From: Haloglomus halophilum
Lineage (GTDB): Archaea > Halobacteriota > Halobacteria > Halobacteriales > Haloarculaceae
Reading direction: 5' to 3'
Assembly (NCBI RefSeq): GCF_024298885.1
Contig: NZ_CP101166.1
Coordinates: 2,291,149 to 2,355,148 of the forward strand
Length of the DNA stretch: 64,000 bases
In this document: positions 4,218 through 51,106 of the stretch, one piece after another
How positions within the stretch are numbered: position 1 is the stretch's first letter
How the letters are laid out: every line of letters begins with the position of its first letter
The notes under the pieces: model-generated
Databases searched by the model: none
What the model was told of the DNA's origin: nothing
The model's input: the letters and a program-made list of their open reading frames with translations, nothing else
Position numbers and translations under genes: made by a program

Positions 4218-6614
4218 GTGAACGCACCAGTCCGTGCCATGTCCGACGAACAGGAGGCAGGTCCCGACCCCGACGCTGGCGGGGGTGGGGGGACGACACC
4301 CGAGGACGGCGACGGCTCGGTCGCCGATACGACTGCCGAGCCCCGCACCGACCCCGGCGACCTGCCCACCTACGACGACGTAGCGACCGCGCGGGAGGTG
4401 CTCCGCGCGTCCCCGGCCGAGCGCGACGAGCGCGGCCTCACCGACGACGACGTGCGGGCAGCGTTCCGGACGGTCATCGACGAGGGTGACCGGGAGGAGA
4501 AGGACCTCTCGGGGGTCACGCTCCCGGCCCTGGACCTCGATTACGAGGTCGTCGACGGGACGAACAAGCACCCAGTCGACCTCCGGGGGGCGACCGTCGA
4601 GAAGCTCAGCGCCGAGCGGGGAACCATCCGGATTCCCCTCCACCTCGAGGACGCCACCGTCGGCGATATCCAGCTGGAGGGCGCGCACGTCACGCAGGAC
4701 CTCATCCTCGACGACGCGACCGTCACCGGCGACGTGGACACGTTCGAGGCCGTGTTCGACGGCGACCTGGAGTGTCGCGGGACCACGTTCGAGGGCGCGG
4801 TCGAACTGGACGAGGGCTCGTTCCACGACGACGTGAGCTTCGACGAGGCGACGTTCGAATCAGGGTTCGCCGCCCGGAACGCGGAGTTCTTCGGCGAGTC
4901 CCATCTGCTGGACGACAGCACCAGCTTCGACGAGGCGACGTTCGCCGGCGAGGCGGACCTCCGGCACACGGACTTCGGCTACGCCCGGTTCGAGGGCGTG
5001 GCCTTCGAGAGCGACGCGACGTTCGAGGAGGCCGACTTCCGGGGCGATGTCGAGTTCGATGGCGCGACGTTCGGTGACGAGGCGGACTTCGACGAGATAC
5101 GCTTCGGCGGGGACGCCTCCTTCGCCGGCGTGACGTTCGGCGGCCTGGCGCACTTCCGTGGCTCCGTCTTCGAGGGCGGGGCCCGAGTGCTGGAGGCCGA
5201 TGCCGCCTTCCAGGACGTCTCCTTCGAGGGCGAGGCGGACTTCACCCGCGCCGGCTTCCGGGTGGCGGACTTCACGGGCACGTCGTTCGCCGGGCCGGCG
5301 ACGTTCACGGAGCTCGCGGCGAGCGACGACCTGACCCTCGCCGACTGCGAGTTCGACGCTGAACTCCACGCCGAGGAGGCGGTTCTCGACGGAGACGTGG
5401 ATGCCACGGGCGCGGCGTTCGCTGCGCCGGTCGTCTTCGAGGAGGCGGAGTTCGGCGACGACGCCTCCTTCGCCGACTGCCGGTTCGATGCGCTGGCGGA
5501 TTTCGACGAGGTGCTGTTCGACGGCGACACCACCTTCGAGGCCGCGACGTTCGAGGACGAGGCCGACTTCCGTGGGACCGAGTTCCTGGGTGACGCCAAC
5601 CACCTCGCCGACGGCATCTCGTTCGCGGACTGTCGGTTCGAGGCGCACACGGACTTCGACGACGCGGCGTTCACCTCCGCGGACTTCGGCGGCGTCACCT
5701 TCGGCGCGCCCGCGGATTTCACGGGCGCGACCTTCGACGACCGGCTCGTCTGCCTGGCCAGCGCGACCACCGCCGCGACGTATCTCGACTTCACCGACGC
5801 GAAGATCAAGCGCGGCCGCATCGTCCAGCCCGAATCCAGCTGGATCCACTACGACATGACCCGTGCCAGCCTGGGTGACGTGGCGCTGGATGCCGAGCGC
5901 GAGTCGGACCGCCGGGAGCTGCTGGACTACTTCCGATTCTGCAACACGGAGTTCGACGAGTTCGACGGCCTGGCCTTCGACTTCTCGGACCACACCGACT
6001 ACCTCGACCGCAACGAGTGGGTGCTCCACGACTTCACCGAGAACGACGCCGCCGACCACGAGTTCGCCGTCGAGATGACGCCGGGGGTGACCGAGACGAC
6101 CTACCTGAAGGCGAAGAACGCCGCCTCCGCGGCGGGGGAGATGAAGGCCGCCGGCGAGTTCCGCGTGAAGCGGCAGGCGTTCTCGCGCCGGAAGCACATC
6201 GACATCGCCAAGGACCCGAGCGTGAGCCTCGGCGCCAGGCTCCAGAACGCCGCGAGAGCCGCCGAGAACGGATTCCTCGGGCTCACCTGCGGCCACGGGA
6301 TGCGCCTGATGCGCATCGCGCTGGTCTTCCTGCTCGCGCCGCTCCTGTTCGTCCCCTTCTACACGTTCGGCGGCCCGGCGTTCGCCACCACCACCGGCCA
6401 GCTGGACTCGCTCTCCGAACTGGCGACCCCTGCCGGGCAGGAGGTGCTGCTCGGCAACATTCACCTCAGCTACATCTCCTACACCACCATCGGCTACGGG
6501 AACGAGGCGCCGACCGCTATCGCCGGGCGGCTGATGGCCAGCAGCGAGGCCTTCCTCAGCACCGTGCTCGCGGCGCTGGTCGTCTATGCGCTGGTCAAGC
6601 GCTCGGAGCTGTAG
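4218..6614 (+). CDS. pentapeptide-repeat beta-helix protein fused to a C-terminal 2-TM potassium-channel pore domain (TTIGYGN selectivity filter)
   Basis: About 350 residues of xxFxx pentapeptide repeats (ATFES/GFAAR/ADFRG...). C-terminus: TM1 LMRIALVFLLAPLLFVPFY, pore helix plus filter HLSYISYTTIGYGNEAPTAIAGRL, TM2 FLSTVLAALVVYALV. Aligns with the KcsA-type TVGYGD...GR pattern. Confidence 0.75.
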   Translation: MNAPVRAMSDEQEAGPDPDAGGGGGTTPEDGDGSVADTTAEPRTDPGDLPTYDDVATAREVLRASPAERDERGLTDDDVRAAFRTVIDEGDREEKDLSGVTLPALDLDYEVVDGTNKHPVDLRGATVEKLSAERGTIRIPLHLEDATVGDIQLEGAHVTQDLILDDATVTGDVDTFEAVFDGDLECRGTTFEGAVELDEGSFHDDVSFDEATFESGFAARNAEFFGESHLLDDSTSFDEATFAGEADLRHTDFGYARFEGVAFESDATFEEADFRGDVEFDGATFGDEADFDEIRFGGDASFAGVTFGGLAHFRGSVFEGGARVLEADAAFQDVSFEGEADFTRAGFRVADFTGTSFAGPATFTELAASDDLTLADCEFDAELHAEEAVLDGDVDATGAAFAAPVVFEEAEFGDDASFADCRFDALADFDEVLFDGDTTFEAATFEDEADFRGTEFLGDANHLADGISFADCRFEAHTDFDDAAFTSADFGGVTFGAPADFTGATFDDRLVCLASATTAATYLDFTDAKIKRGRIVQPESSWIHYDMTRASLGDVALDAERESDRRELLDYFRFCNTEFDEFDGLAFDFSDHTDYLDRNEWVLHDFTENDAADHEFAVEMTPGVTETTYLKAKNAASAAGEMKAAGEFRVKRQAFSRRKHIDIAKDPSVSLGARLQNAARAAENGFLGLTCGHGMRLMRIALVFLLAPLLFVPFYTFGGPAFATTTGQLDSLSELATPAGQEVLLGNIHLSYISYTTIGYGNEAPTAIAGRLMASSEAFLSTVLAALVVYALVKRSEL

Positions 6615-32634: not shown

Positions 32635-34464
32635 CTACCGCTGGACCGACCGGGTCAGCGCGAAGACGAACAGGGCGATGAGGAAGCCACCGAGGAACCC
32701 TTCTGACGAGGCGAGCAGTCTGACGGGAAGCGTCGCGCCACGCGGGACGCCGCCGAAGATGAGGCTCACGAACGACTGGAGGCTGAACGTCAGGTTCTCG
32801 AGCGCGACGGTCGCGAGCGACGCGTCCGGTCGCGTCACGGCTCCCAGTCCGGCGAACACCGCCCCGTACCCGGCCACGAGCAGCAGGGAGACCGCGACCG
32901 TTCTGAGCGGCCGCTCGCCGTAGCCACAGCTCAGTCCGAACAGCGCGTTGGTGGCCCAGCCGCCGGCCGCCCGCAGCCGGTCGGTGGCTGTCTCGCCCGT
33001 CCCGACAGCATCCCGTTTGAGCCGGCGGCGGTAGCGCATCTCCCGGACGAAGAACTGCGAGGCCGCGGTCCGGTCGCCGGTGGCATCGGCCCCACGACGG
33101 GCCTTGAGGTACGTCGACTCCAGAACCTTCGGCGCGAGGTCGGCATCGACGGCCCGGCCGCGCCCGGGGTCGTGAACCCGGTGGAGGTTCCACGTCTCGC
33201 CGAGTGCGCCACGGTGGTCCTCGAACGCGAACCCGTCGAACGAGGTCCGGGCCACCCGGAGGTGGTCGAACGGCACCACCCCCGAGTCGCCACCGACGAG
33301 GGTGACATCCGCGATGGCTCCGTCCGTGCAGTCGAAGACGACCCGTTCGTCGTCGGGCAGGTGGAGTTTGCCGTCGGCGACGGTGGCGTCCGTACAGTCG
33401 ACGACGACGCGCTCGTCGGCCGGACGGTCCGGTCCAGGGACGAGCCCCGAGCAGTCGAGGCCACCGTCGATGCTGGCGCCCCGGAGTCCGAGGTCACCGA
33501 CGAGCGTCGCCCCGGCGAACTCCACGCCCGACCGGAACGTGGCGTTCCTGAACTGGAGGTCCGCTCGCGGCCCGGACCGGTGCCGTCGTCCGCCGTGGAT
33601 TCCGACGAACCAGGTCCGGTCGGCGAACGTGGCGTCGAGGAAGTCCGTGCCACCCTCGAAGCGACAGTCGGTGAAGTGTGCCTCCCCGTCGAAGTGGGCG
33701 CCACCGAATCCCGCGTCCCCCTCGAAGCGGGTGTGGCGGAACCACGCGTCGCCGCCGAACTCGACGCGGCGGAACCCGGCGGCCCCGCGGCAGCGAGCCC
33801 CCGCGAATCGGACCGTGCCATCGAAGGCCGCCCCCTTCGCACGGACCGAACCGAACGAACAGGCGTCGAGCCGGAGCTCCGTCCCGAACCGGGCGTCCGA
33901 GAGGTCGGCCCGTTCCGAGACGGTACAGAACCGCAGGTCGACGGGGCGGTTGTACGCCGGGCGATGGACGTAGCCGGCGAGGTCGAGCGTCTCGAACGAG
34001 GCCCCGACGACGACGTGACGCGCCGGGTCGTCGGCCGACAGCGCCTCGTGGAGCGCCTCCCGGACTGCCGCGGGCGATGCGTCGCCGTGGAAGACACAGC
34101 GGTCGCTCCCGTCGGTCGCGGGATGTGGACACTCGGTCGGCAGGTCCTCGTCCGTCCGGTCGTTGCTCCCGCGGCGGACGAGCAGGTCGACGACGTCGTC
34201 CACCGTCCGTCCGAGGACCTCCGCGTCCGCGTCCGCGACGACGCTGGCGGCGCCCTGCGCGAGCAGGTCATCGTCGACCGGACGGTCTGCCGGGAGCGCC
34301 TCCCGGAGCCGTCGTCGCCCCACCTCGACCCCGTTCCCCTCGCGGTCCGCCCCGTTGAACCCCTCCGGAGCCGTGCAGAACGCCCGGACCGTCACCAGCT
34401 CGTCCGCGAGCGCGACCAGGTGGTCGCGCCAGTCCTCGTCGGCGAAGTACGTGCAGCTGTCCAT
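32635..34464 (-). CDS. paralog of the 4218-6614 protein: pentapeptide-repeat domain plus C-terminal 2-TM pore-loop domain with a degenerate filter
   Basis: Shares STYLKA(K/R), FGL(S/T)CG(Y/H)G and ASSE(G/A)FL with the paralog, but has SLQSFVSLIFGGVP where the paralog has SYISYTTIGYGNEAP. Confidence 0.7.
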   Translation of the reverse strand: MDSCTYFADEDWRDHLVALADELVTVRAFCTAPEGFNGADREGNGVEVGRRRLREALPADRPVDDDLLAQGAASVVADADAEVLGRTVDDVVDLLVRRGSNDRTDEDLPTECPHPATDGSDRCVFHGDASPAAVREALHEALSADDPARHVVVGASFETLDLAGYVHRPAYNRPVDLRFCTVSERADLSDARFGTELRLDACSFGSVRAKGAAFDGTVRFAGARCRGAAGFRRVEFGGDAWFRHTRFEGDAGFGGAHFDGEAHFTDCRFEGGTDFLDATFADRTWFVGIHGGRRHRSGPRADLQFRNATFRSGVEFAGATLVGDLGLRGASIDGGLDCSGLVPGPDRPADERVVVDCTDATVADGKLHLPDDERVVFDCTDGAIADVTLVGGDSGVVPFDHLRVARTSFDGFAFEDHRGALGETWNLHRVHDPGRGRAVDADLAPKVLESTYLKARRGADATGDRTAASQFFVREMRYRRRLKRDAVGTGETATDRLRAAGGWATNALFGLSCGYGERPLRTVAVSLLLVAGYGAVFAGLGAVTRPDASLATVALENLTFSLQSFVSLIFGGVPRGATLPVRLLASSEGFLGGFLIALFVFALTRSVQR

Positions 34465-46492: not shown

Positions 46493-46698
46493 TCCACCAC
46501 TTGCGGCTCCACCTCTCTCACGCCCACGTTCCGAAGCCCTTAGAAGCCCGAACCAAGAAGATAGCTCCAACTCGTCGGTCGCGGGCACCGACGGGCACCT
46601 GCTACGGCAGGATGGAATGTGGCCAGCGGGGGCGAAGCCCCCGGAGAGGCGGCGCAGCCGCCGATGGGCTGAACCACGCAACGCCCGCGGTGACACAC

Positions 46699-47289
46699 AT
46701 GACACGAAGCTTCTATTCGCACATCCGGGAGGCCTGGAACTCCCCGAAGGAGGGCAAGCTCGCGGAACTGCAGTGGCAGCGCCAGCAGGAGTGGCGCGAC
46801 CAGGGCGCCATCGAGCGCATCGAGCGGCCAACCCGACTGGACCGCGCGCGCTCGCTGGGCTACAAGGCAAAGCAGGGTATCGTCGTGGCCCGCGTCGCCG
46901 TCCGGAAGGGCGGGGCGCGCAAGCAGCGGTTCAAGGCCGGCCGGCGCTCGAAGCGCCAGGGTGTGAACAAGATCACCCGCCGGAAGTCCATCCAGCGCAT
47001 CGCCGAGGAGCGCGCTGGCCGGAAGTTCCGGAACCTGCGGGTCCTGAACTCCTACTGGGTCGGTGAGGACGGCTCGAAGAAGTGGCACGAGGTCATCCTC
47101 GTGGACCCCGAGCACCCCGCCATCGAGAACGACGACGACCTGAACTGGATCTGCGACAGCAGCCAGCGCGGGCGCGCCTACCGCGGGCGAACCTCCGCGG
47201 GGCAGAAGGGTCGCGGCCAGCAGGGTCGTGGCAAGGGCACCGAGCACACGAAGCCCAGTCTCGGCGCCGACCGTCGGCGCGGGAAATAA
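46699..47289 (+). CDS. rpl15e: 50S ribosomal protein L15e
   Basis: [16 protein letters not shown]...[27 protein letters not shown]: L15e family. Confidence 0.85.
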
Positions 47290-47442: not shown

Positions 47443-47850
47443 ATGGCCGATGCCGAACCCGCGGTCGACACCGAGCGGCTCCGGCGGTTGCTGGGCGACC
47501 AGCTGGGGGAGTGCTGTGAGGGTGATGTGGAGGACCGGGTGGCGGAGCTCCGGACGCTGGAGCGCGAGACCACCGCGCCCGGCGGCGACCTGACGGCGCT
47601 CCAGGCACTCGGCGGGGAGACGCGCTACCGACTGACCCGGCTGCTCGCCGCGGGGGGCGAGCGCTGTGTCTGTGAACTCGCGCCGCTCGTCGATGTCTCC
47701 GAATCCGCGGTGAGCCACGCGCTCTCCTCGCTGGCTGACGCCGGGCTGGTCGAGCGTCGGAAGGCGGGCCGCTGGCGCTACTACCGCGCCACCGACCGCG
47801 CGACCGCACTGCTGGACGCGCTCGACCGGACCCGGGAGGTGCCGGCATGA
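47443..47850 (+). CDS. arsR: ArsR/SmtB family metalloregulator
   Basis: LAAGGERCVCELAPLVDVSESAVSHALSSLADAGLV: metal-sensing CVC plus HTH. Confidence 0.8.
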   Translation: MADAEPAVDTERLRRLLGDQLGECCEGDVEDRVAELRTLERETTAPGGDLTALQALGGETRYRLTRLLAAGGERCVCELAPLVDVSESAVSHALSSLADAGLVERRKAGRWRYYRATDRATALLDALDRTREVPA

Positions 47851-48275
47851 GCCGCCGGACGCTGGGCTTCGTCTGCGTGCAGAACGCCGGCCGGTCGCAG
47901 ATGTCGGCCGCCTTCGCCGAGCGCGAGCGCGCACGCCGCGGGCTGGCGGACGAGGTCGATATCGTCACCGGCGGGACCGACCCCGCCGACGCGGTCCACC
48001 CGGAGGTCGTCGAGGCCATGCGCGAACTCGACATCGACCTCTCGGACCGCACGCCGCGTGCGGTCACCGACGCGGAGCTCGCCGAGTGCGATGTCGTGGC
48101 GACGATGGGCTGTTCGACGCTGTCGCTCCCCGAGGGCGTCGAGGCCCGGGACTGGGCGCTCGCGGACCCGCACGGCCAGGACATCGAGCGCGTCCGCGAG
48201 ATCCGCGAGGAGATCGAGGGCCTCGTCGTCGACCTGTTCGACGAGGTCGAGGCCGACCTCGCCGCCGGGCAGTAA
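47847..48275 (+). CDS. arsC: arsenate reductase, LMW-PTPase type
   Basis: LGFVCVQNAGRSQMSAAF (CX5R P-loop) plus downstream Cys; ATGA overlap with arsR. Confidence 0.8.
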   Translation: MSRRTLGFVCVQNAGRSQMSAAFAERERARRGLADEVDIVTGGTDPADAVHPEVVEAMRELDIDLSDRTPRAVTDAELAECDVVATMGCSTLSLPEGVEARDWALADPHGQDIERVREIREEIEGLVVDLFDEVEADLAAGQ

Positions 48276-48290
48276 CGCCCACGAGAGACC

Positions 48291-48350
48291 GCTTCTCTCG
48301 ACGGCGCTTCTCTCGATGCCGCTTCTCTCGACGGCGCTTCTCTCGATGCC
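48291..48350. repeat. perfect tandem repeat, 30-bp unit (GCTTCTCTCGACGGC GCTTCTCTCGATGCC) x2, equivalent to a 15-bp unit x4
   Basis: Direct reading; 16 bp 3' of the arsC stop. Confidence 0.9.
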
Positions 48351-48547
48351 CGACCTCCCGTGAGCCGGCGCGCCAGCCACCGCCCGTCCGGGGTATAATA
48401 CCCCACCTCACAACTGCGGGGGACCACCTACCGTGGTCGCCCCGTAGAAACGAGTATGAACCGACGAAGGATTCGTCCTGAATCGTCTCACAGTGTCTCC
48501 AGTCGGAATCGAGTACCACGAAACGGCAACCATCGGAGGGGGGACCG

Positions 48548-49867
48548 ATGACGGAGACGGTCCCGTTCACCCCGCTGGACGAGGCCGTGTTCCACCTCGA
48601 GGAGGAACTCGAACCCTGGAACGTCCAGATCGAGATCGGCTCGGCGGCCAGTCTGGACGGCGAGCGCCTGTACGACGCCGTCGAGGCGGCCGCGGCGGCG
48701 CACCCGCTCGCACGGGCGCGTCTGCGCGACTACGGTGCCCTCGACGACGAGTACGTCTGGGAGATCCCCGACGAGCCCGACACGGTCCCGCTGAAGCGGA
48801 CCGAGGCGGCCGATGCCGGGGCGCTGGCCGACTTCCGGACGCAGTTCTACAGCCCCCGCGTCGAACTCCGCGAGTCGCCGCCGTTCCGGGTCGCGCTGGC
48901 CCGCGGCGGCGGTATCGACGGCGGCGACCGGCTCATGGTCTGCGGGAGCCACGTCGCGATGGACGGCGTCGGGACGCTCCGGCTCGCGCGCTCGATCTGT
49001 CAGGCCTACCGCGGCGGCCCCATCGACGAGGACCCCGTGGGGCTGGCCGAATCCCGTGCCGTGCTGGCCGAGAACGGCCCGAGCTCGCTCGCCGAGGCCG
49101 GGACCCGCCTTGCCGAGGGACTGGGTCGGCTCCCGGACGCACTGGACGAGCCGACCCGTATTGCCGTCGACGGCGGGACGGACGACTCCGGCTGGGGGTT
49201 CGTCCACCGGGAACTGGACGACGACCTCGTCGCGGCGGTCGTGGGGAACCGGCCGGATGGCGTGTCGGTCAACGACTGCTTCCTCGCGGCGCTCCACCTC
49301 GCCATCGACGGCTGGAACGCCAGCCACGGCGAGGAGCGCGACCGCATCAGCCTGATGATGCCGGTCAACGCCCGGCCGCCGGAGTGGTTCTACGAGACGG
49401 TCGGGATGTACGCCCCGTTCGTGAGCATCGACACGAAGCCGTGCCACCGCACGAGTCCGGGTGCGGCCGTCGAACGCGTCGTCGAGCAGACCAGCCGGCA
49501 CAAGCGCCACGACGGCGCCGGCTGGGTCACGGATGCGCTGGGCCCGCTCTCATCGAACCTCCCGGTCGGCATCAAGCGCCTCGTCCCGGGGCTGCTCGGC
49601 GCGACGCAGTACCGCTTCGTCGACAGCGCCGTCCTCTCGAACCTGGGGCGGGCTCCCGAACTCCGGGCACTGGGCGGCGACGGCGACGCGACGGACCTGT
49701 GGTTCTCGCCCCCGTCGATGATGCCGCTCGGCGTCGGCTTCGGCGTCGCGACCCTGGACGGCGACGTGCGGCTGGTCACCCGCTACAGTCAGCAGCAGTT
49801 CGACCGCGACGCCGCCCGTCGGTTCACGGACCGCTACCTCGACCGGCTCGGCGCGACGGTCCCGTGA
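48548..49867 (+). CDS. condensation-domain-like acyltransferase (HxxxDG superfamily; WS/DGAT- or PapA5-like)
   Basis: N-terminal FTPLDEAVFHLEE like WS/DGAT LSPLDxxFL; catalytic-site-like CGSHVAMDGVG (HxxxDG) at about residue 135; 439 aa. Confidence 0.55.
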   Translation: MTETVPFTPLDEAVFHLEEELEPWNVQIEIGSAASLDGERLYDAVEAAAAAHPLARARLRDYGALDDEYVWEIPDEPDTVPLKRTEAADAGALADFRTQFYSPRVELRESPPFRVALARGGGIDGGDRLMVCGSHVAMDGVGTLRLARSICQAYRGGPIDEDPVGLAESRAVLAENGPSSLAEAGTRLAEGLGRLPDALDEPTRIAVDGGTDDSGWGFVHRELDDDLVAAVVGNRPDGVSVNDCFLAALHLAIDGWNASHGEERDRISLMMPVNARPPEWFYETVGMYAPFVSIDTKPCHRTSPGAAVERVVEQTSRHKRHDGAGWVTDALGPLSSNLPVGIKRLVPGLLGATQYRFVDSAVLSNLGRAPELRALGGDGDATDLWFSPPSMMPLGVGFGVATLDGDVRLVTRYSQQQFDRDAARRFTDRYLDRLGATVP

Positions 49868-49945: not shown

Positions 49946-50353
49946 CTACCGCTCGATGTCCCCGTCGTCGGGCCCGAACTCGTCGATGCGCTCGTGGACG
50001 TAGTCGGTCCACTCATCGAGCGTCTCGTGCATCAGTTCACGGGCCTCCTCCAGTGGCGTGGCGGTGTACTGGTAGACGTGCCCGCCCGAGTCGAGCAGGC
50101 GGCGTTCGCGGGTTGCGAGGTTCTTCTCGCGGAGCGTCGCGAGCGAGCGGTTCACGTTCGAGCGGTCGCGGTCCAGCGTATCAGCCAGCTCGGCGACCGT
50201 GCTCCCTGGGGTCTCCAGCAGCGTGAGATAGGTCCGGGCCTCGTGGCTCTGGATACCGAAGACACAGGCCATCACGTCCGTGACGCCCGGCTCGTCGTCG
50301 ATCATCAGCTCGCGGAACCGGCCGGGGTCGGGGTCGGAAGCGGGCGTGTCCAT
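49946..50353 (-). CDS. HTH transcriptional regulator (TrmB/MarR-like)
   Basis: ARTYLTLLETPGSTVAELADTLDRDRSNVNRSLATLREKNL. Confidence 0.55.
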   Translation of the reverse strand: MDTPASDPDPGRFRELMIDDEPGVTDVMACVFGIQSHEARTYLTLLETPGSTVAELADTLDRDRSNVNRSLATLREKNLATRERRLLDSGGHVYQYTATPLEEARELMHETLDEWTDYVHERIDEFGPDDGDIER

Positions 50354-50626: not shown

Positions 50627-51106
50627 ATGGCAGAGACACAGACCGCGAACGCCACCGGACTGACCGATATCGAAGCACCGTCGTGGAAAGGCGGCGTCGT
50701 CGCCGGGGTTGTCGGGGGCGCCGTCATGGCCGCCGTGATGCTGATGATGAACCCTGCCCCGATCGAGGTCGCGATTCCGAGCCTCTACGGGCTCGCACCG
50801 CCCCCCAACGGAGCGGCCGGACTCGTCGTCCACCTCTCGCACGGCGCGGTCCTCGGGGTCGCCTTCGCCGGCCTGGTCGGCGTGGCGGACATCGGCGACT
50901 CGCGGGGGACGCTCCTCGGTGCAGGCGTCGTCTGGGGCGTCGTGACGTGGGTCGTGCTCGCGGCGCTGGTGATGCCGGCCTGGCTGTCCGTGGTCGGCTC
51001 GCCGGCCCAGCCGCCGCTGCCCAACTTCGCGCTCCCGAGCCTGCTGTGGCACGTCGTCTACGGCGTCGTCGCTGCCGCGGTGCTCCCTGCGGTCGACGAG
51101 CTGTAA
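50627..51106 (+). CDS. membrane protein (4 TM), hypothetical
   Basis: MAETQTANATGL then hydrophobic helices; internal ATG of track ORF 50423-51106. Confidence 0.45.
   Translation: MAETQTANATGLTDIEAPSWKGGVVAGVVGGAVMAAVMLMMNPAPIEVAIPSLYGLAPPPNGAAGLVVHLSHGAVLGVAFAGLVGVADIGDSRGTLLGAGVVWGVVTWVVLAALVMPAWLSVVGSPAQPPLPNFALPSLLWHVVYGVVAAAVLPAVDEL

Follow-up and report, generated by a model that had tools for sequence, protein, structure and literature searches.

Related enzymes and archaeal WS/DGAT

AzeD founds the "C_standalone" clade of condensation-family proteins and is a dehydratase that acts on a free small molecule in the azetidomonamide NRPS pathway. Its clade comprises 35 close homologues, one-third of them in NRPS/PKS clusters, and lies near the E and Cyc clades (bioRxiv 10.64898/2026.07.17.738954). 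Free-standing proteins of the condensation fold also include PapA5 and PapA (PDB accession numbers 1q9j and 6aef), which in mycobacteria (Actinomycetota) transfer acyl groups to lipid alcohols to form esters, as well as SgcC5 (4znm), CmnI (9uay), and VibH (1l5a), which use carrier-protein-bound donors and belong to secondary-metabolite clusters; the locus described here has no such cluster.

Archaeal WS/DGAT and wax esters have been reported in the same haloarchaeal genera as the protein described here (Grossi et al. 2025, PMC11948995). According to that report, these genera have WS/DGAT, many copies of fadD, and β-oxidation, and Natronomonas pharaonis produces wax esters. Only NH and HH variants of the archaeal WS/DGAT motif were reported, and the gene usually lies within or beside the ATP synthase (atp) cluster. 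TIGR02946 was used in the hmmsearch; Haloglomus halophilum ZY41, Natronomonas gomsonensis YCN60, and Natronomonas sp. CBA1123 were scored WS/DGAT positive, whereas the single Halorientalis scored, H. salina, was negative. The supplement consists of presence/absence tables without accessions for WS/DGAT (PMC11948995).

The gene, its fold, and its catalytic motif

The window, i.e., the whole stretch of H. halophilum DNA that was analyzed, is 64 kb long. The gene and the conserved segments of its product are as follows.

48548-49867, plus strand: coding sequence of a stand-alone condensation-superfamily protein (439 amino acids, ATG start, WP_254821019.1)
48572-48580, plus strand: P9-L10-D11 of the FTPLDEAVFHLEE segment, a C1-like N-terminal motif, from the translation; the segment is conserved in the family
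48947-48967, plus strand: SHVAMDG, the xHxxxDG catalytic motif, from the translation and alignment, with the His135 codon at 48950-48952
49268-49285, plus strand: VNDCFL, the start of a C-lobe helix; N242-D243 is invariant in the family alignment
49361-49375, plus strand: PVNAR, at the aligned position of SPVADR in the FscG C domain; P272, N274, and R276 are invariant
49637-49651, plus strand: SNLGR; S364, N365, G367, and R368 are invariant

The ORF call and the translation agree with the 439-residue frame of the sequence-only reading, and no other in-frame start is present between the upstream stop and the ATG. Its sequence matches WP_254821019.1, which is annotated as a "hypothetical protein" in H. 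halophilum, with 100% identity. The GC3 of the gene (0.93) is similar to that of the remaining genes in the window, and the protein has a pI of 4.68, with 15.7% D+E and 0.9% K. When the gene is compared with its 81%-identical orthologue, the identities at codon positions 1, 2, and 3 are 0.89, 0.90, and 0.66, respectively; the gene is therefore under purifying selection, and it is a real gene.

Pfam Condensation (PF00668) matches the protein with 39.4 bits against a gathering threshold of 30.6 (E = 4.2e-10) and is above threshold in 24 of 24 family members; 78 homologues were collected down to an E-value of 1e-29. The AlphaFold2 model (pLDDT = 89.6, pTM = 0.91) takes the shape of a V-shaped pseudo-dimer of two CAT-like lobes, which is the fold of the superfamily, and Foldseek matches it to C/E domains with an E-value of ~1e-23. 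The assignment to the condensation superfamily that had been made from the sequence, along with the two-lobed CAT-like structure expected there, is borne out by the profile and the model; the match is far above chance.

SHVAMDG is aligned on HHIAADE of the solved NRPS PCP-C didomain (7kvw/8fx7), and H135, D139, and G140 are invariant in the 24-member alignment, in agreement with the earlier placement of this segment at the catalytic HHxxxDG position. The xHxxxDG pattern, which contains the second His of the superfamily motif, is retained in 75 of the 78 homologues, whereas the first position varies (SH in 43, NH in 20, and HH in 7). The N-terminus of the protein is MTETVPFTPLDEAVFHLEE; the PLD noted there in the sequence-only reading is P9-L10-D11 of the family-conserved segment. 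E12 is nearly invariant across the family alignment, and we take the FTPLDEAVFHLEE segment to resemble the N-terminus of WS/DGAT. VNDCFL, which lies inside the region matched by TIGR02946, corresponds in the alignment to NDLLLxAL, a motif found in NRPS epimerization domains. The Arg of PVNAR presumably forms a structural Asp-Arg pair with D139, as in C domains. Like R276 and R368, R412 is invariant. A peptide pattern from the SNLGR region was the query with which 52 related loci were retrieved.

Relationship to NRPS domains, AzeD, WS/DGAT, and PapA5

The family profile matches NRPS C/E domains with E-values of 3e-15 to 2e-13, compared with 4.5e-3 for AtfA, and the best match of the C-lobe profile is to E domains; this order of similarity was counted against an acyltransferase function. 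The best-matched domains (FscG PCP-C 7kvw, TycB3 E 6ta8, and PvdL E2) share with the family the HHxxxDG position and the PxxxR motif, and the NDxLLxAL helix is common to the E domains. They differ in that the protein studied here is a single domain outside any multidomain synthetase, with Ser in place of the first His. The closest structural relative of the model is AzeD (PDB 8s6l), with 16% identity; that the nearest solved structure belongs to a dehydratase and not to an acyltransferase was also counted against an acyltransferase function. In both profile and fold, NRPS C/E domains and AzeD stand closer to the family than WS/DGAT and PapA5 do.

The "WS/DGAT-PapA5 type" proposed in the sequence-only reading did not survive the profile comparison. 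TIGR02946 matches the protein with 34.2 bits (E = 1.3e-8), ~275 bits short of the curated cut-off of 309.95; PF03007, PF06974, and PF16911 gave no match in Pfam (at E ≤ 1 for PF03007 and PF06974), nor did the NCBIfam PapA5 models. Across the 24 members, TIGR02946 matches 23, all weakly (best E = 1.6e-24), and WS_DGAT_cat (PF03007) is weak in 4; PapA_C (PF16911) is weak in 8 and NF006787 is found in 3, all far under the cut-offs, and the five families that were reported in these members do not include PF06974. Similar to WS/DGAT (PDB 6chj and 7nxg), the protein is stand-alone and predicted to be cytoplasmic, it has the catalytic His-xxx-DG, and its C-lobe contains motifs of the ND and SNxxG types. 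PapA5 and PapA are structurally farther from it than C domains are, and a PKS partner of the Mas/Pps-like kind is found neither in the window nor among the top bacterial neighbor families. The protein lies outside WS/DGAT and outside PapA5, and its family is a distinct, uncharacterized sister family, neither a true wax-ester synthase nor PapA5.

Distribution and origin

The family contains about 650 clusters at 50% identity, mostly from Actinomycetota, so the earlier description "typical of actinobacteria" holds. Some bacterial members bear a hydrophobic N-terminal extension; the Pfam-less N-terminal domain that is fused to some bacterial members was sought by tblastn as a separate gene near the archaeal copies, with no match in any locus or in the window. 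Haloarchaeal carriers are Haloglomus, Natronomonas, several species of Halorientalis, and Halovenus, and their copies form one clade nested among bacterial ones in an NJ tree. The gene is of actinobacterial origin and is an old acquisition. Its acidic composition, its GC3, the monophyly of the archaeal copies, and purifying selection point to long residence in archaea; a single acquisition from bacteria by an ancestor of the Haloglomus/Natronomonas/Halorientalis/Halovenus group, with later retention under purifying selection, would account for the distribution. Our literature search found no relevant work on condensation-domain proteins in Halobacteria or on stand-alone condensation acyltransferases. 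The view that such a protein is "unusual for an archaeon" is correct insofar as the family is limited to a few related haloarchaeal genera, but WS/DGAT and wax esters had already been published there (PMC11948995).

Genomic context

The features surrounding the gene in the window are as follows.

47443-47850, plus strand: arsR (NF033788, 81 bits against a cut-off of 55)
47847-48275, plus strand: LMWP-type arsC (LMWPc, 88 bits), overlapping arsR by 4 bp
48289-48350, no strand: tandem repeat just past the arsC stop, 2 × 30 bp, perfect
48390-48547, plus strand: conserved upstream region, a putative promoter and leader, from its conservation in loci L062, L063, and L064
48390-48404, plus strand: palindrome GGGGTAT-A-ATACCCC with a TATA-like TATAAT, part of the conserved upstream region
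48414-48447, plus strand: possible hairpin in the upstream region, with weak structure support
about 48455-48480, plus strand: conserved block TATGAACCGA..TTCGTC in the upstream region
48535-48539, plus strand: SD-like GGAGG in the upstream region
49946-50353, minus strand: TrmB/Sta1-like winged-helix regulator, from an ORF and profile matches

The position of the gene after arsR-arsC, as read earlier from the sequence, was confirmed by the profiles of both ars genes. A functional link with them was rejected, because in L062, which carries the 81%-identical orthologue, this orthologue directly follows rpl15e with no arsRC between them, and because no ars genes are found beside the orthologues in other genera; the adjacency is accidental. 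The tandem repeat is present as the earlier reading stated but is perfect only as two 30-bp copies, since the 15-bp units are two alternating variants with 90% matches, and not a perfect 4 × 15-bp array. Its 12-bp core, CGCTTCTCTCGA, occurs in four copies at a spacing of 15 bp and nowhere else in the window. We likewise rejected the idea that the repeat regulates the gene as an array, because all three close relatives (L062, L063, and L064) lack it and its RNA fold is unremarkable (z = -0.37). The TrmB-like gene, which is retained in L062 and not in L063 or L064, had been described as divergent; as a minus-strand gene 3' of a plus-strand gene, it is convergent, in a tail-to-tail arrangement.

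The first ~45 nucleotides of the upstream region are 96 to 100% identical among L062, L063, and L064, compared with 66 to 71% at third codon positions of the coding sequence. The fold of the leader has a z-score of -1.3, and covariation was checked on three distinct sequences only. An Rfam search of the leader (E ≤ 1) gave no known element; the only matches were to the eL15 leader and, spuriously, to an miRNA.

ORF clustering of the 52 loci gave no conserved operon partners in haloarchaea, and synteny is maintained within genera only. No lipid genes are near the haloarchaeal copies at the loci examined; this lack of conserved neighbors and of nearby lipid genes was counted against an acyltransferase function. 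NRPS, PKS, and carrier-protein genes are absent from the 64-kb window, which agrees with the stand-alone character of the protein, and from the annotated genes at five other haloarchaeal loci. The atp genes are also missing, both from the window and from the annotated surroundings of five other orthologues in haloarchaea.

The bacterial neighborhood is of a different kind. The top neighbors (census n = 121) are ACAD, TetR, alpha/beta hydrolases, PlsC-type acyltransferases, AMP-binding proteins, enoyl-CoA hydratase, WS/DGAT, and DAGAT, and in 17 loci a gene for a FadE-like acyl-CoA dehydrogenase is located no more than 8 kb away. In L056, the gene order is ACAD-ACAD-AMP-binding-[C-like]-alpha/beta hydrolase, and the C-like gene overlaps both of its neighbors; in P0123, the C-like domain is fused to an alpha/beta hydrolase. 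PKS and carrier families are not in the top 25 neighbor families of 34 bacterial loci.

Predicted function

Taken as a whole, the protein is best explained as a stand-alone, bacterial-derived enzyme of the condensation superfamily that is an acyl-CoA-dependent acyltransferase for a hydrophobic acceptor, to which we assign a probability of about 0.5. This activity is predicted because the bacterial neighbors are lipid and acyl-CoA genes. The enzyme would work in the cytoplasm without a partner domain, and His135 would sit between the two lobes and serve as the general base that activates a hydroxyl group (or, less likely, an amine) of the acceptor. Attack of the activated acceptor on the acyl-CoA thioester would then release CoA and yield an ester lipid, which is the course of the reaction in WS/DGAT and PapA5. 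Because long-chain fatty acids are used and wax esters are made in these genera, the most plausible acceptor is a lipid hydroxyl, such as that of a fatty or isoprenoid alcohol. The weak similarity of the C-lobe to WS/DGAT and PapA is consistent with the acyltransferase proposal. More specifically, the protein may be a second, noncanonical lipid acyltransferase of haloarchaea that joins a fatty acyl-CoA to an archaeal acceptor, such as a fatty alcohol in those Halorientalis species that may lack WS/DGAT or an isoprenoid, archaeol, or carotenoid hydroxyl, an idea that we put forward only tentatively. N. pharaonis, the wax-ester producer, is not among the named homologues; wax-ester synthesis therefore does not depend on this family.

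An enzyme comparable to AzeD, in which the conserved His serves a dehydration, an isomerization, or a similar reaction on a free small molecule, seems unlikely. Both proteins are free-standing, consist of about 430 to 440 residues, and take the V-shaped two-lobe fold; both keep the second His and the DG while the first His is replaced (PHxxxDG in AzeD and SH in the protein studied here). Like the C_standalone proteins, the family consists of discrete proteins in which the first His is often substituted. The position of the AzeD clade near the E and Cyc clades also parallels the preference of the C-lobe for E domains. On the other hand, the sequence identity is only 16%, and the high structural Z may stem in part from a similar inter-lobe opening of two free-standing proteins. 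The family is also much larger than the AzeD clade and lacks the NRPS context of the latter, having acyl-CoA and lipid genes as its bacterial neighbors, and the weak C-lobe matches to WS/DGAT and PapA argue in the same direction.

We also regard as improbable an N-acyltransferase or amide synthase similar to VibH, which would transfer an activated acyl group onto a free amine of an amino acid, a polyamine, or a peptide. The nearest sequence profiles are indeed those of amide-forming NRPS C domains, and an AMP-binding gene, adjacent at a few bacterial loci, lies directly upstream in L056 and a few kilobases away in L019 and L020. However, none of the haloarchaeal loci examined has a carrier protein or an adenylation/PCP partner gene, and the bacterial neighbors belong mostly to fatty-acyl metabolism, lipid acyltransferases, and lipases rather than to amino-acid or polyamine genes.

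It is very unlikely that the protein is itself the archaeal WS/DGAT that Grossi et al. (2025) scored in H. halophilum. Their positive result for strain ZY41 was obtained with TIGR02946, the model that also matches this protein, and one member of the family bears the NCBI name "wax ester/triacylglycerol synthase domain-containing"; the two families occur in the same haloarchaeal genera, and the first His is often replaced in archaeal WS/DGAT as well (NH). The match is nevertheless far below the cut-off (34 versus 310 bits), and the protein keeps the second His but has Ser at the first position, a state unreported for archaeal WS/DGAT (PMC11948995). The atp-cluster context is missing from the window and from the five other haloarchaeal loci with annotated genes. 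In the positive strains YCN60 and CBA1123, the neighbors of the orthologues would be genes for an Mrp antiporter and a GHMP kinase, as judged from synteny with L054, an annotated locus. The phyletic pattern differs too, with the family present in several Halorientalis species while H. salina was scored negative (PMC11948995). One bacterial contig carries a family member together with a separate gene that matches PF03007 and PF06974. An hhalign comparison of the family profile with a 153-residue N-terminal WS/DGAT fragment (Pfam annotated, contig L057) gave no significant match (E = 0.56) but carries no weight, since the motif of the fragment is itself degenerate.

A trans-acting condensation or epimerization partner of an NRPS/PKS, with its carrier-bound substrates encoded elsewhere in the genome, is the least probable of these readings. 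Embedded C and E domains do give the strongest matches in sequence, but NRPS, PKS, and carrier genes are missing from the window, the five haloarchaeal loci, and the top bacterial neighbor families, and the second catalytic motif of E domains appears, on reading of the sequence, to be absent.

Implications

The present result is a solid improvement of annotation and no surprise: the protein is an uncharacterized member of a known superfamily. Archaea were long believed to lack fatty-acid-based neutral lipids, until wax esters and a WS/DGAT of bacterial type were demonstrated in 2025 in precisely the genera with this gene (PMC11948995). A further enzyme of the WS/DGAT fold in these genera, divergent and derived from bacteria, is a concrete candidate for additional archaeal acyl-lipid chemistry, and the gene is also present in Halorientalis, whose one scored species was WS/DGAT negative (PMC11948995). 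If the protein is a second lipid acyltransferase, hybrid fatty-acid/isoprenoid ester lipids would be expected, and the recently discovered capacity of a few archaea for fatty-acid-based neutral lipids would be wider. If it instead resembles AzeD in function, stand-alone enzymes of the condensation fold would be spread far outside secondary-metabolite clusters. A function for this large actinomycetotal family would close an annotation gap of about 650 clusters.

The condensation-like gene and its product

The open reading frame at 48548-49867 (+) is a real gene: it starts with ATG, has no in-frame start between the preceding stop and that ATG, carries GGAGG 8 nt upstream of the start, and has a third-position GC content of 0.93, like the other genes of the ~70% GC window. 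The 439-aa product matches WP_254821019.1, annotated as a "hypothetical protein" in Haloglomus halophilum, at 100% identity, and H. salinum and H. litoreum have orthologues with >90% identity. Identities to an 81%-identical orthologue are 0.89, 0.90, and 0.66 at codon positions 1, 2, and 3, respectively, the pattern typical of a protein under purifying selection. The motif SHVAMDG lies at 48947-48967.

The protein is a member of the condensation superfamily and, on the results of the family, structure, and profile searches, falls outside all of its named families. The Condensation profile (PF00668) matches the N-lobe (residues 17 to 161) with 39.4 bits against a gathering score of 30.6, while the NCBIfam WS/DGAT model TIGR02946 matches the C-lobe (residues 234 to 408) weakly, with 34.2 bits against a cutoff of 309.95. 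Among the 24 members of the family alignment, Condensation matches 24, PapA_C 8, WS_DGAT_cat 4, and TIGR02946 23 (best E = 1.6e-24). All 24 share H135, D139, G140, N242-D243, W256-N257, P272, N274, R276, S364-N365-x-G367-R368, and S387-P388-P389; the position preceding the catalytic His is variable (Ser in 43, Asn in 20, and His in 7 of 78 homologues).

AlphaFold2 gives a confident model (pLDDT = 89.6, pTM = 0.91), which matches 284 PDB chains in Foldseek at E <= 1e-3, those listed being all condensation, epimerization, cyclization, or stand-alone C-like proteins, so that the predicted fold is that of the condensation superfamily. A profile search against PDB sequences retrieved FscG C (3e-15), PvdL E2 (1e-14), TycB3 E (2e-13), AzeD (2.9e-12), and AtfA at just 4.5e-3, and the C-lobe profile alone matched epimerization domains via the NDxLLxAL..W helix. 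The sequence-only reading, which had assigned the protein to the WS/DGAT-PapA5 type, is thus upheld at the superfamily level by PF00668 and the fold but is wrong at the family level, where the TIGR02946 score is far too low. The superfamily is known, this member of it uncharacterised; databases call the protein only hypothetical or NRPS condensation-like, and the JGI label, "NRPS condensation-like uncharacterized protein," is a fair description.

Genomic context

The 64-kb window is a housekeeping region, in which ftsY, aldehyde dehydrogenase, MaoC dehydratase, CorA, SDR, lysA, PAN-type AAA ATPase, pepF, pst/phoU, rpl15e with its eL15 leader, arsRC, alaS, XPD-like helicase, and panE genes were identified. 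The features discussed here are as follows.

4218-6614 (+) and 32635-34464 (-), two large pentapeptide-repeat proteins (Pentapeptide_3), the former with a weak C-terminal ion-channel match (Ion_trans_2)
46598-46680 (+), eL15-Euryarchaeota leader (Rfam RF03144; 38.7 bits, gathering score 33.7)
46699-47289, rpl15e coding sequence, downstream of the leader
47443-48275, arsR-arsC (compared with L062 5021-6001)
48289-48350, tandem repeat
48390-48480 (+), conserved upstream region (L062 5847-5930, L063 656-740, L064 622-706)
49946-50353 (-), TrmB/Sta1-like gene
50627-51106 (+), small membrane protein, borderline DUF6789 (26.6 against 27.1 bits)

Because of the RF03144 match upstream, the real rpl15e start is ATG 46699, not the listed TTG 46501. 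The TrmB/Sta1-like gene had been described as divergent from the condensation-like gene; the two are convergent, and the gene divergent from this regulator is that of the small membrane protein, which may be its actual partner.

The product of arsR is a true regulator of the ArsR/SmtB type and that of arsC an arsenate reductase of the low-molecular-weight-phosphatase type; the two genes share a 4-bp overlap. The pair lies between rpl15e and the condensation-like gene in the window and is present in L063 and L064, two loci of Haloglomus-lineage relatives, where arsC is kept and a DHH phosphoesterase gene lies downstream of the orthologue. It is absent from a third, L062, with the order pstSCAB-rpl15e-[orthologue]-TrmB-alaS. 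These gene orders suggest a lineage-specific insertion (or loss) of arsR-arsC; the adjacency is accidental, and the argument once drawn from it falls, the neighbours in other genera being different as well. The tandem repeat starts immediately after the arsC stop. It is not the perfect 4 x 15 bp array first described but a perfect 2 x 30 bp one, in which alternating 15-bp units match at 90%; its core, CGCTTCTCTCGA, occurs four times at 15-bp spacing and only here in the window, and the first copy is able to pair with the preceding CGAGAGA. None of the three relatives has the repeat.

Directly upstream of the condensation-like gene, a block of ~45 nt, GGGTATAATACCCCACCTCACAACTGCGGGGGACCACCTACC (about 48390-48435), is 96 to 100% identical in the same relatives, against 66 to 71% for the synonymous sites of the gene. 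Its TATA-like TATAAT lies inside a 7-bp palindrome, GGGGTAT-A-ATACCCC; beyond the block come a GC-rich hairpin, in which one change is compensatory, and another stretch of conserved sequence, TATGAACCGA..TTCGTC. Upstream of the orthologues from other genera, no such block was found. The region is probably the gene's own promoter, operator, and start of a ~120-nt leader, in which secondary structure is weakly indicated.

Distribution and neighbours of the family

When 1.84 billion representative proteins were searched in full with an HMM, 647 clusters (50% identity) passed E <= 1e-30 and 5798 passed E <= 1e-10. A scan seeded with a motif, in which each species was represented by one genome, found 52 loci, a lower bound since a single peptide pattern was used and H. 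halophilum itself was missed. Haloarchaea account for 13 of them (Natronomonas, Halorientalis, and Halobacteriales MAGs), and the others are mostly from Actinomycetota (Solirubrobacterales/Thermoleophilia, Nocardiaceae, Actinomycetospora, and Acidimicrobiales), with a few from Myxococcota, Binatia, and others; the protein search adds Halovenus and Halorientalis halophila (two copies). In the NCBI taxonomy, Haloglomus belongs to Natronomonadaceae and Halorientalis to Haloarculaceae, whereas the taxonomy used by Grossi et al. (PMC11948995) has Haloglomus, Natronomonas, Halorientalis, and Halovenus all in Haloarculaceae. A neighbour-joining tree without bootstraps groups the main haloarchaeal copies in a single clade inside bacterial sequences, which fits one transfer from a bacterium to an archaeon, with vertical descent and some duplication thereafter. 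The transfer is old, judging from a protein that has become fully "halophilised" (pI 4.68, D+E 15.7%, K 0.9%).

Tandem family members occur in Natronomonas amylolytica (L012 5110-9296), the upstream copy being highly divergent and grouped with bacterial outliers in the tree, and in a Natronomonas MAG (L011 3-2906); P0087 (883 aa) is a tandem double protein. About ten bacterial members (P0096, P0098, P0100, P0113, P0114, P0120, P0159, P0163, P0171, and P0179) have N-terminal extensions of ~130 to 220 residues. The five that were read share a domain without a Pfam match (…RFxRDTxLGGIxHxGKxSxRE…SLHV…AHxDxxSPL…), which was found as a separate gene neither in any fetched locus nor in the window.

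The neighbours of haloarchaeal orthologues vary from genus to genus: the orthologue lies between GHMP kinase and phosphopantothenate-synthetase-family genes in Natronomonas, and follows a triose-phosphate isomerase gene in Halorientalis and a DUF5820 gene in Halovenus. On two Natronomonas metagenome contigs (L054 5168-8551 and L055 2135-5518), a small Ig_halo protein accompanies the orthologue between the GHMP-family kinase and PPS_PS genes, the two coenzyme A biosynthesis genes specific to archaea, which as a rule lie side by side. The link to CoA is intriguing but comes from a single genus.

The bacterial context is informative. A FadE-like acyl-CoA dehydrogenase gene lies <8 kb away in 17 loci, often adjacent, and a PGAP1-like serine esterase gene is nearby in 9. 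Among 121 genes within two positions of the family gene in 34 bacterial loci, the top families are acyl-CoA dehydrogenases, TetR, alpha/beta hydrolases, aldo/keto reductases, and PlsC-type acyltransferases; AMP-binding, enoyl-CoA hydratase, acyl-CoA oxidase, WS/DGAT, and DAGAT genes also occur. On contig L056, TetR precedes DUF5938-ACAD-ACAD-AMP-binding-[family gene]-alpha/beta hydrolase, and the family gene overlaps both flanks; P0123 (763 aa), with a C-terminal alpha/beta hydrolase fused to the condensation-like domain, mirrors the overlapping pair. On another contig, the family member is accompanied by SDR, P450, Rieske, and FMO genes, and a separate gene that matches Pfam PF03007 and PF06974 lies at a distance of 5.5 kb.

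Proposed reaction and relation to archaeal wax ester synthesis

The protein has an intact condensation-type active-site motif, stands alone, and has no carrier partner; NRPS, PKS, and carrier genes were not found in the 64-kb window. Given the absence of carrier proteins and the production and use of acyl-CoAs by the enzymes encoded next to the bacterial members, the donor would be a CoA thioester; His135 would deprotonate or position the nucleophile of a hydrophobic acceptor, giving an ester (less likely an amide) and CoA. We put this reading at about 0.5. Non-acyl chemistry is improbable, although it has a precedent in AzeD, a stand-alone condensation-fold dehydratase in which the same His is the general acid in E1 dehydration of a free metabolite (bioRxiv 10.64898/2026.07.17.738954). 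Formation of an amide on a free amine is just as improbable.

Bona fide WS/DGAT genes have been reported in 26 Halobacteriales, including Haloglomus, Natronomonas, Halovenus, and Halorarius, with the motif NHxxxDG or HHxxxDG and often in an atp cluster (Grossi et al., ISME J 2025, PMC11948995). That the present gene is one of these is very unlikely, given the TIGR02946 score (34.2 against 309.95 bits), the SH motif, the lack of an atp context, and the occurrence of the family in Halorientalis; atp, fadD, fcrA-like, and WS/DGAT genes were not found in the window. That the protein is a trans-acting NRPS/PKS partner is likewise very unlikely.

The same study demonstrated wax ester synthesis in N. 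pharaonis and described FcrA, a new fatty acyl-CoA reductase (PMC11948995). With these findings, the WS/DGATs included, a condensation-fold acyltransferase in these archaea is no longer unprecedented. The gene had been called unusual for an archaeon; few haloarchaeal genera carry the family, but WS/DGATs were already published for overlapping genera. Compared with them, the present family is different and more C/E-like, and no description of it was found in the literature searched. N. pharaonis is absent among the named homologues in the protein search; therefore, the family is not needed for wax ester synthesis there. Its interest is moderate and lies in its coincidence with the newly discovered neutral-lipid metabolism of archaea.
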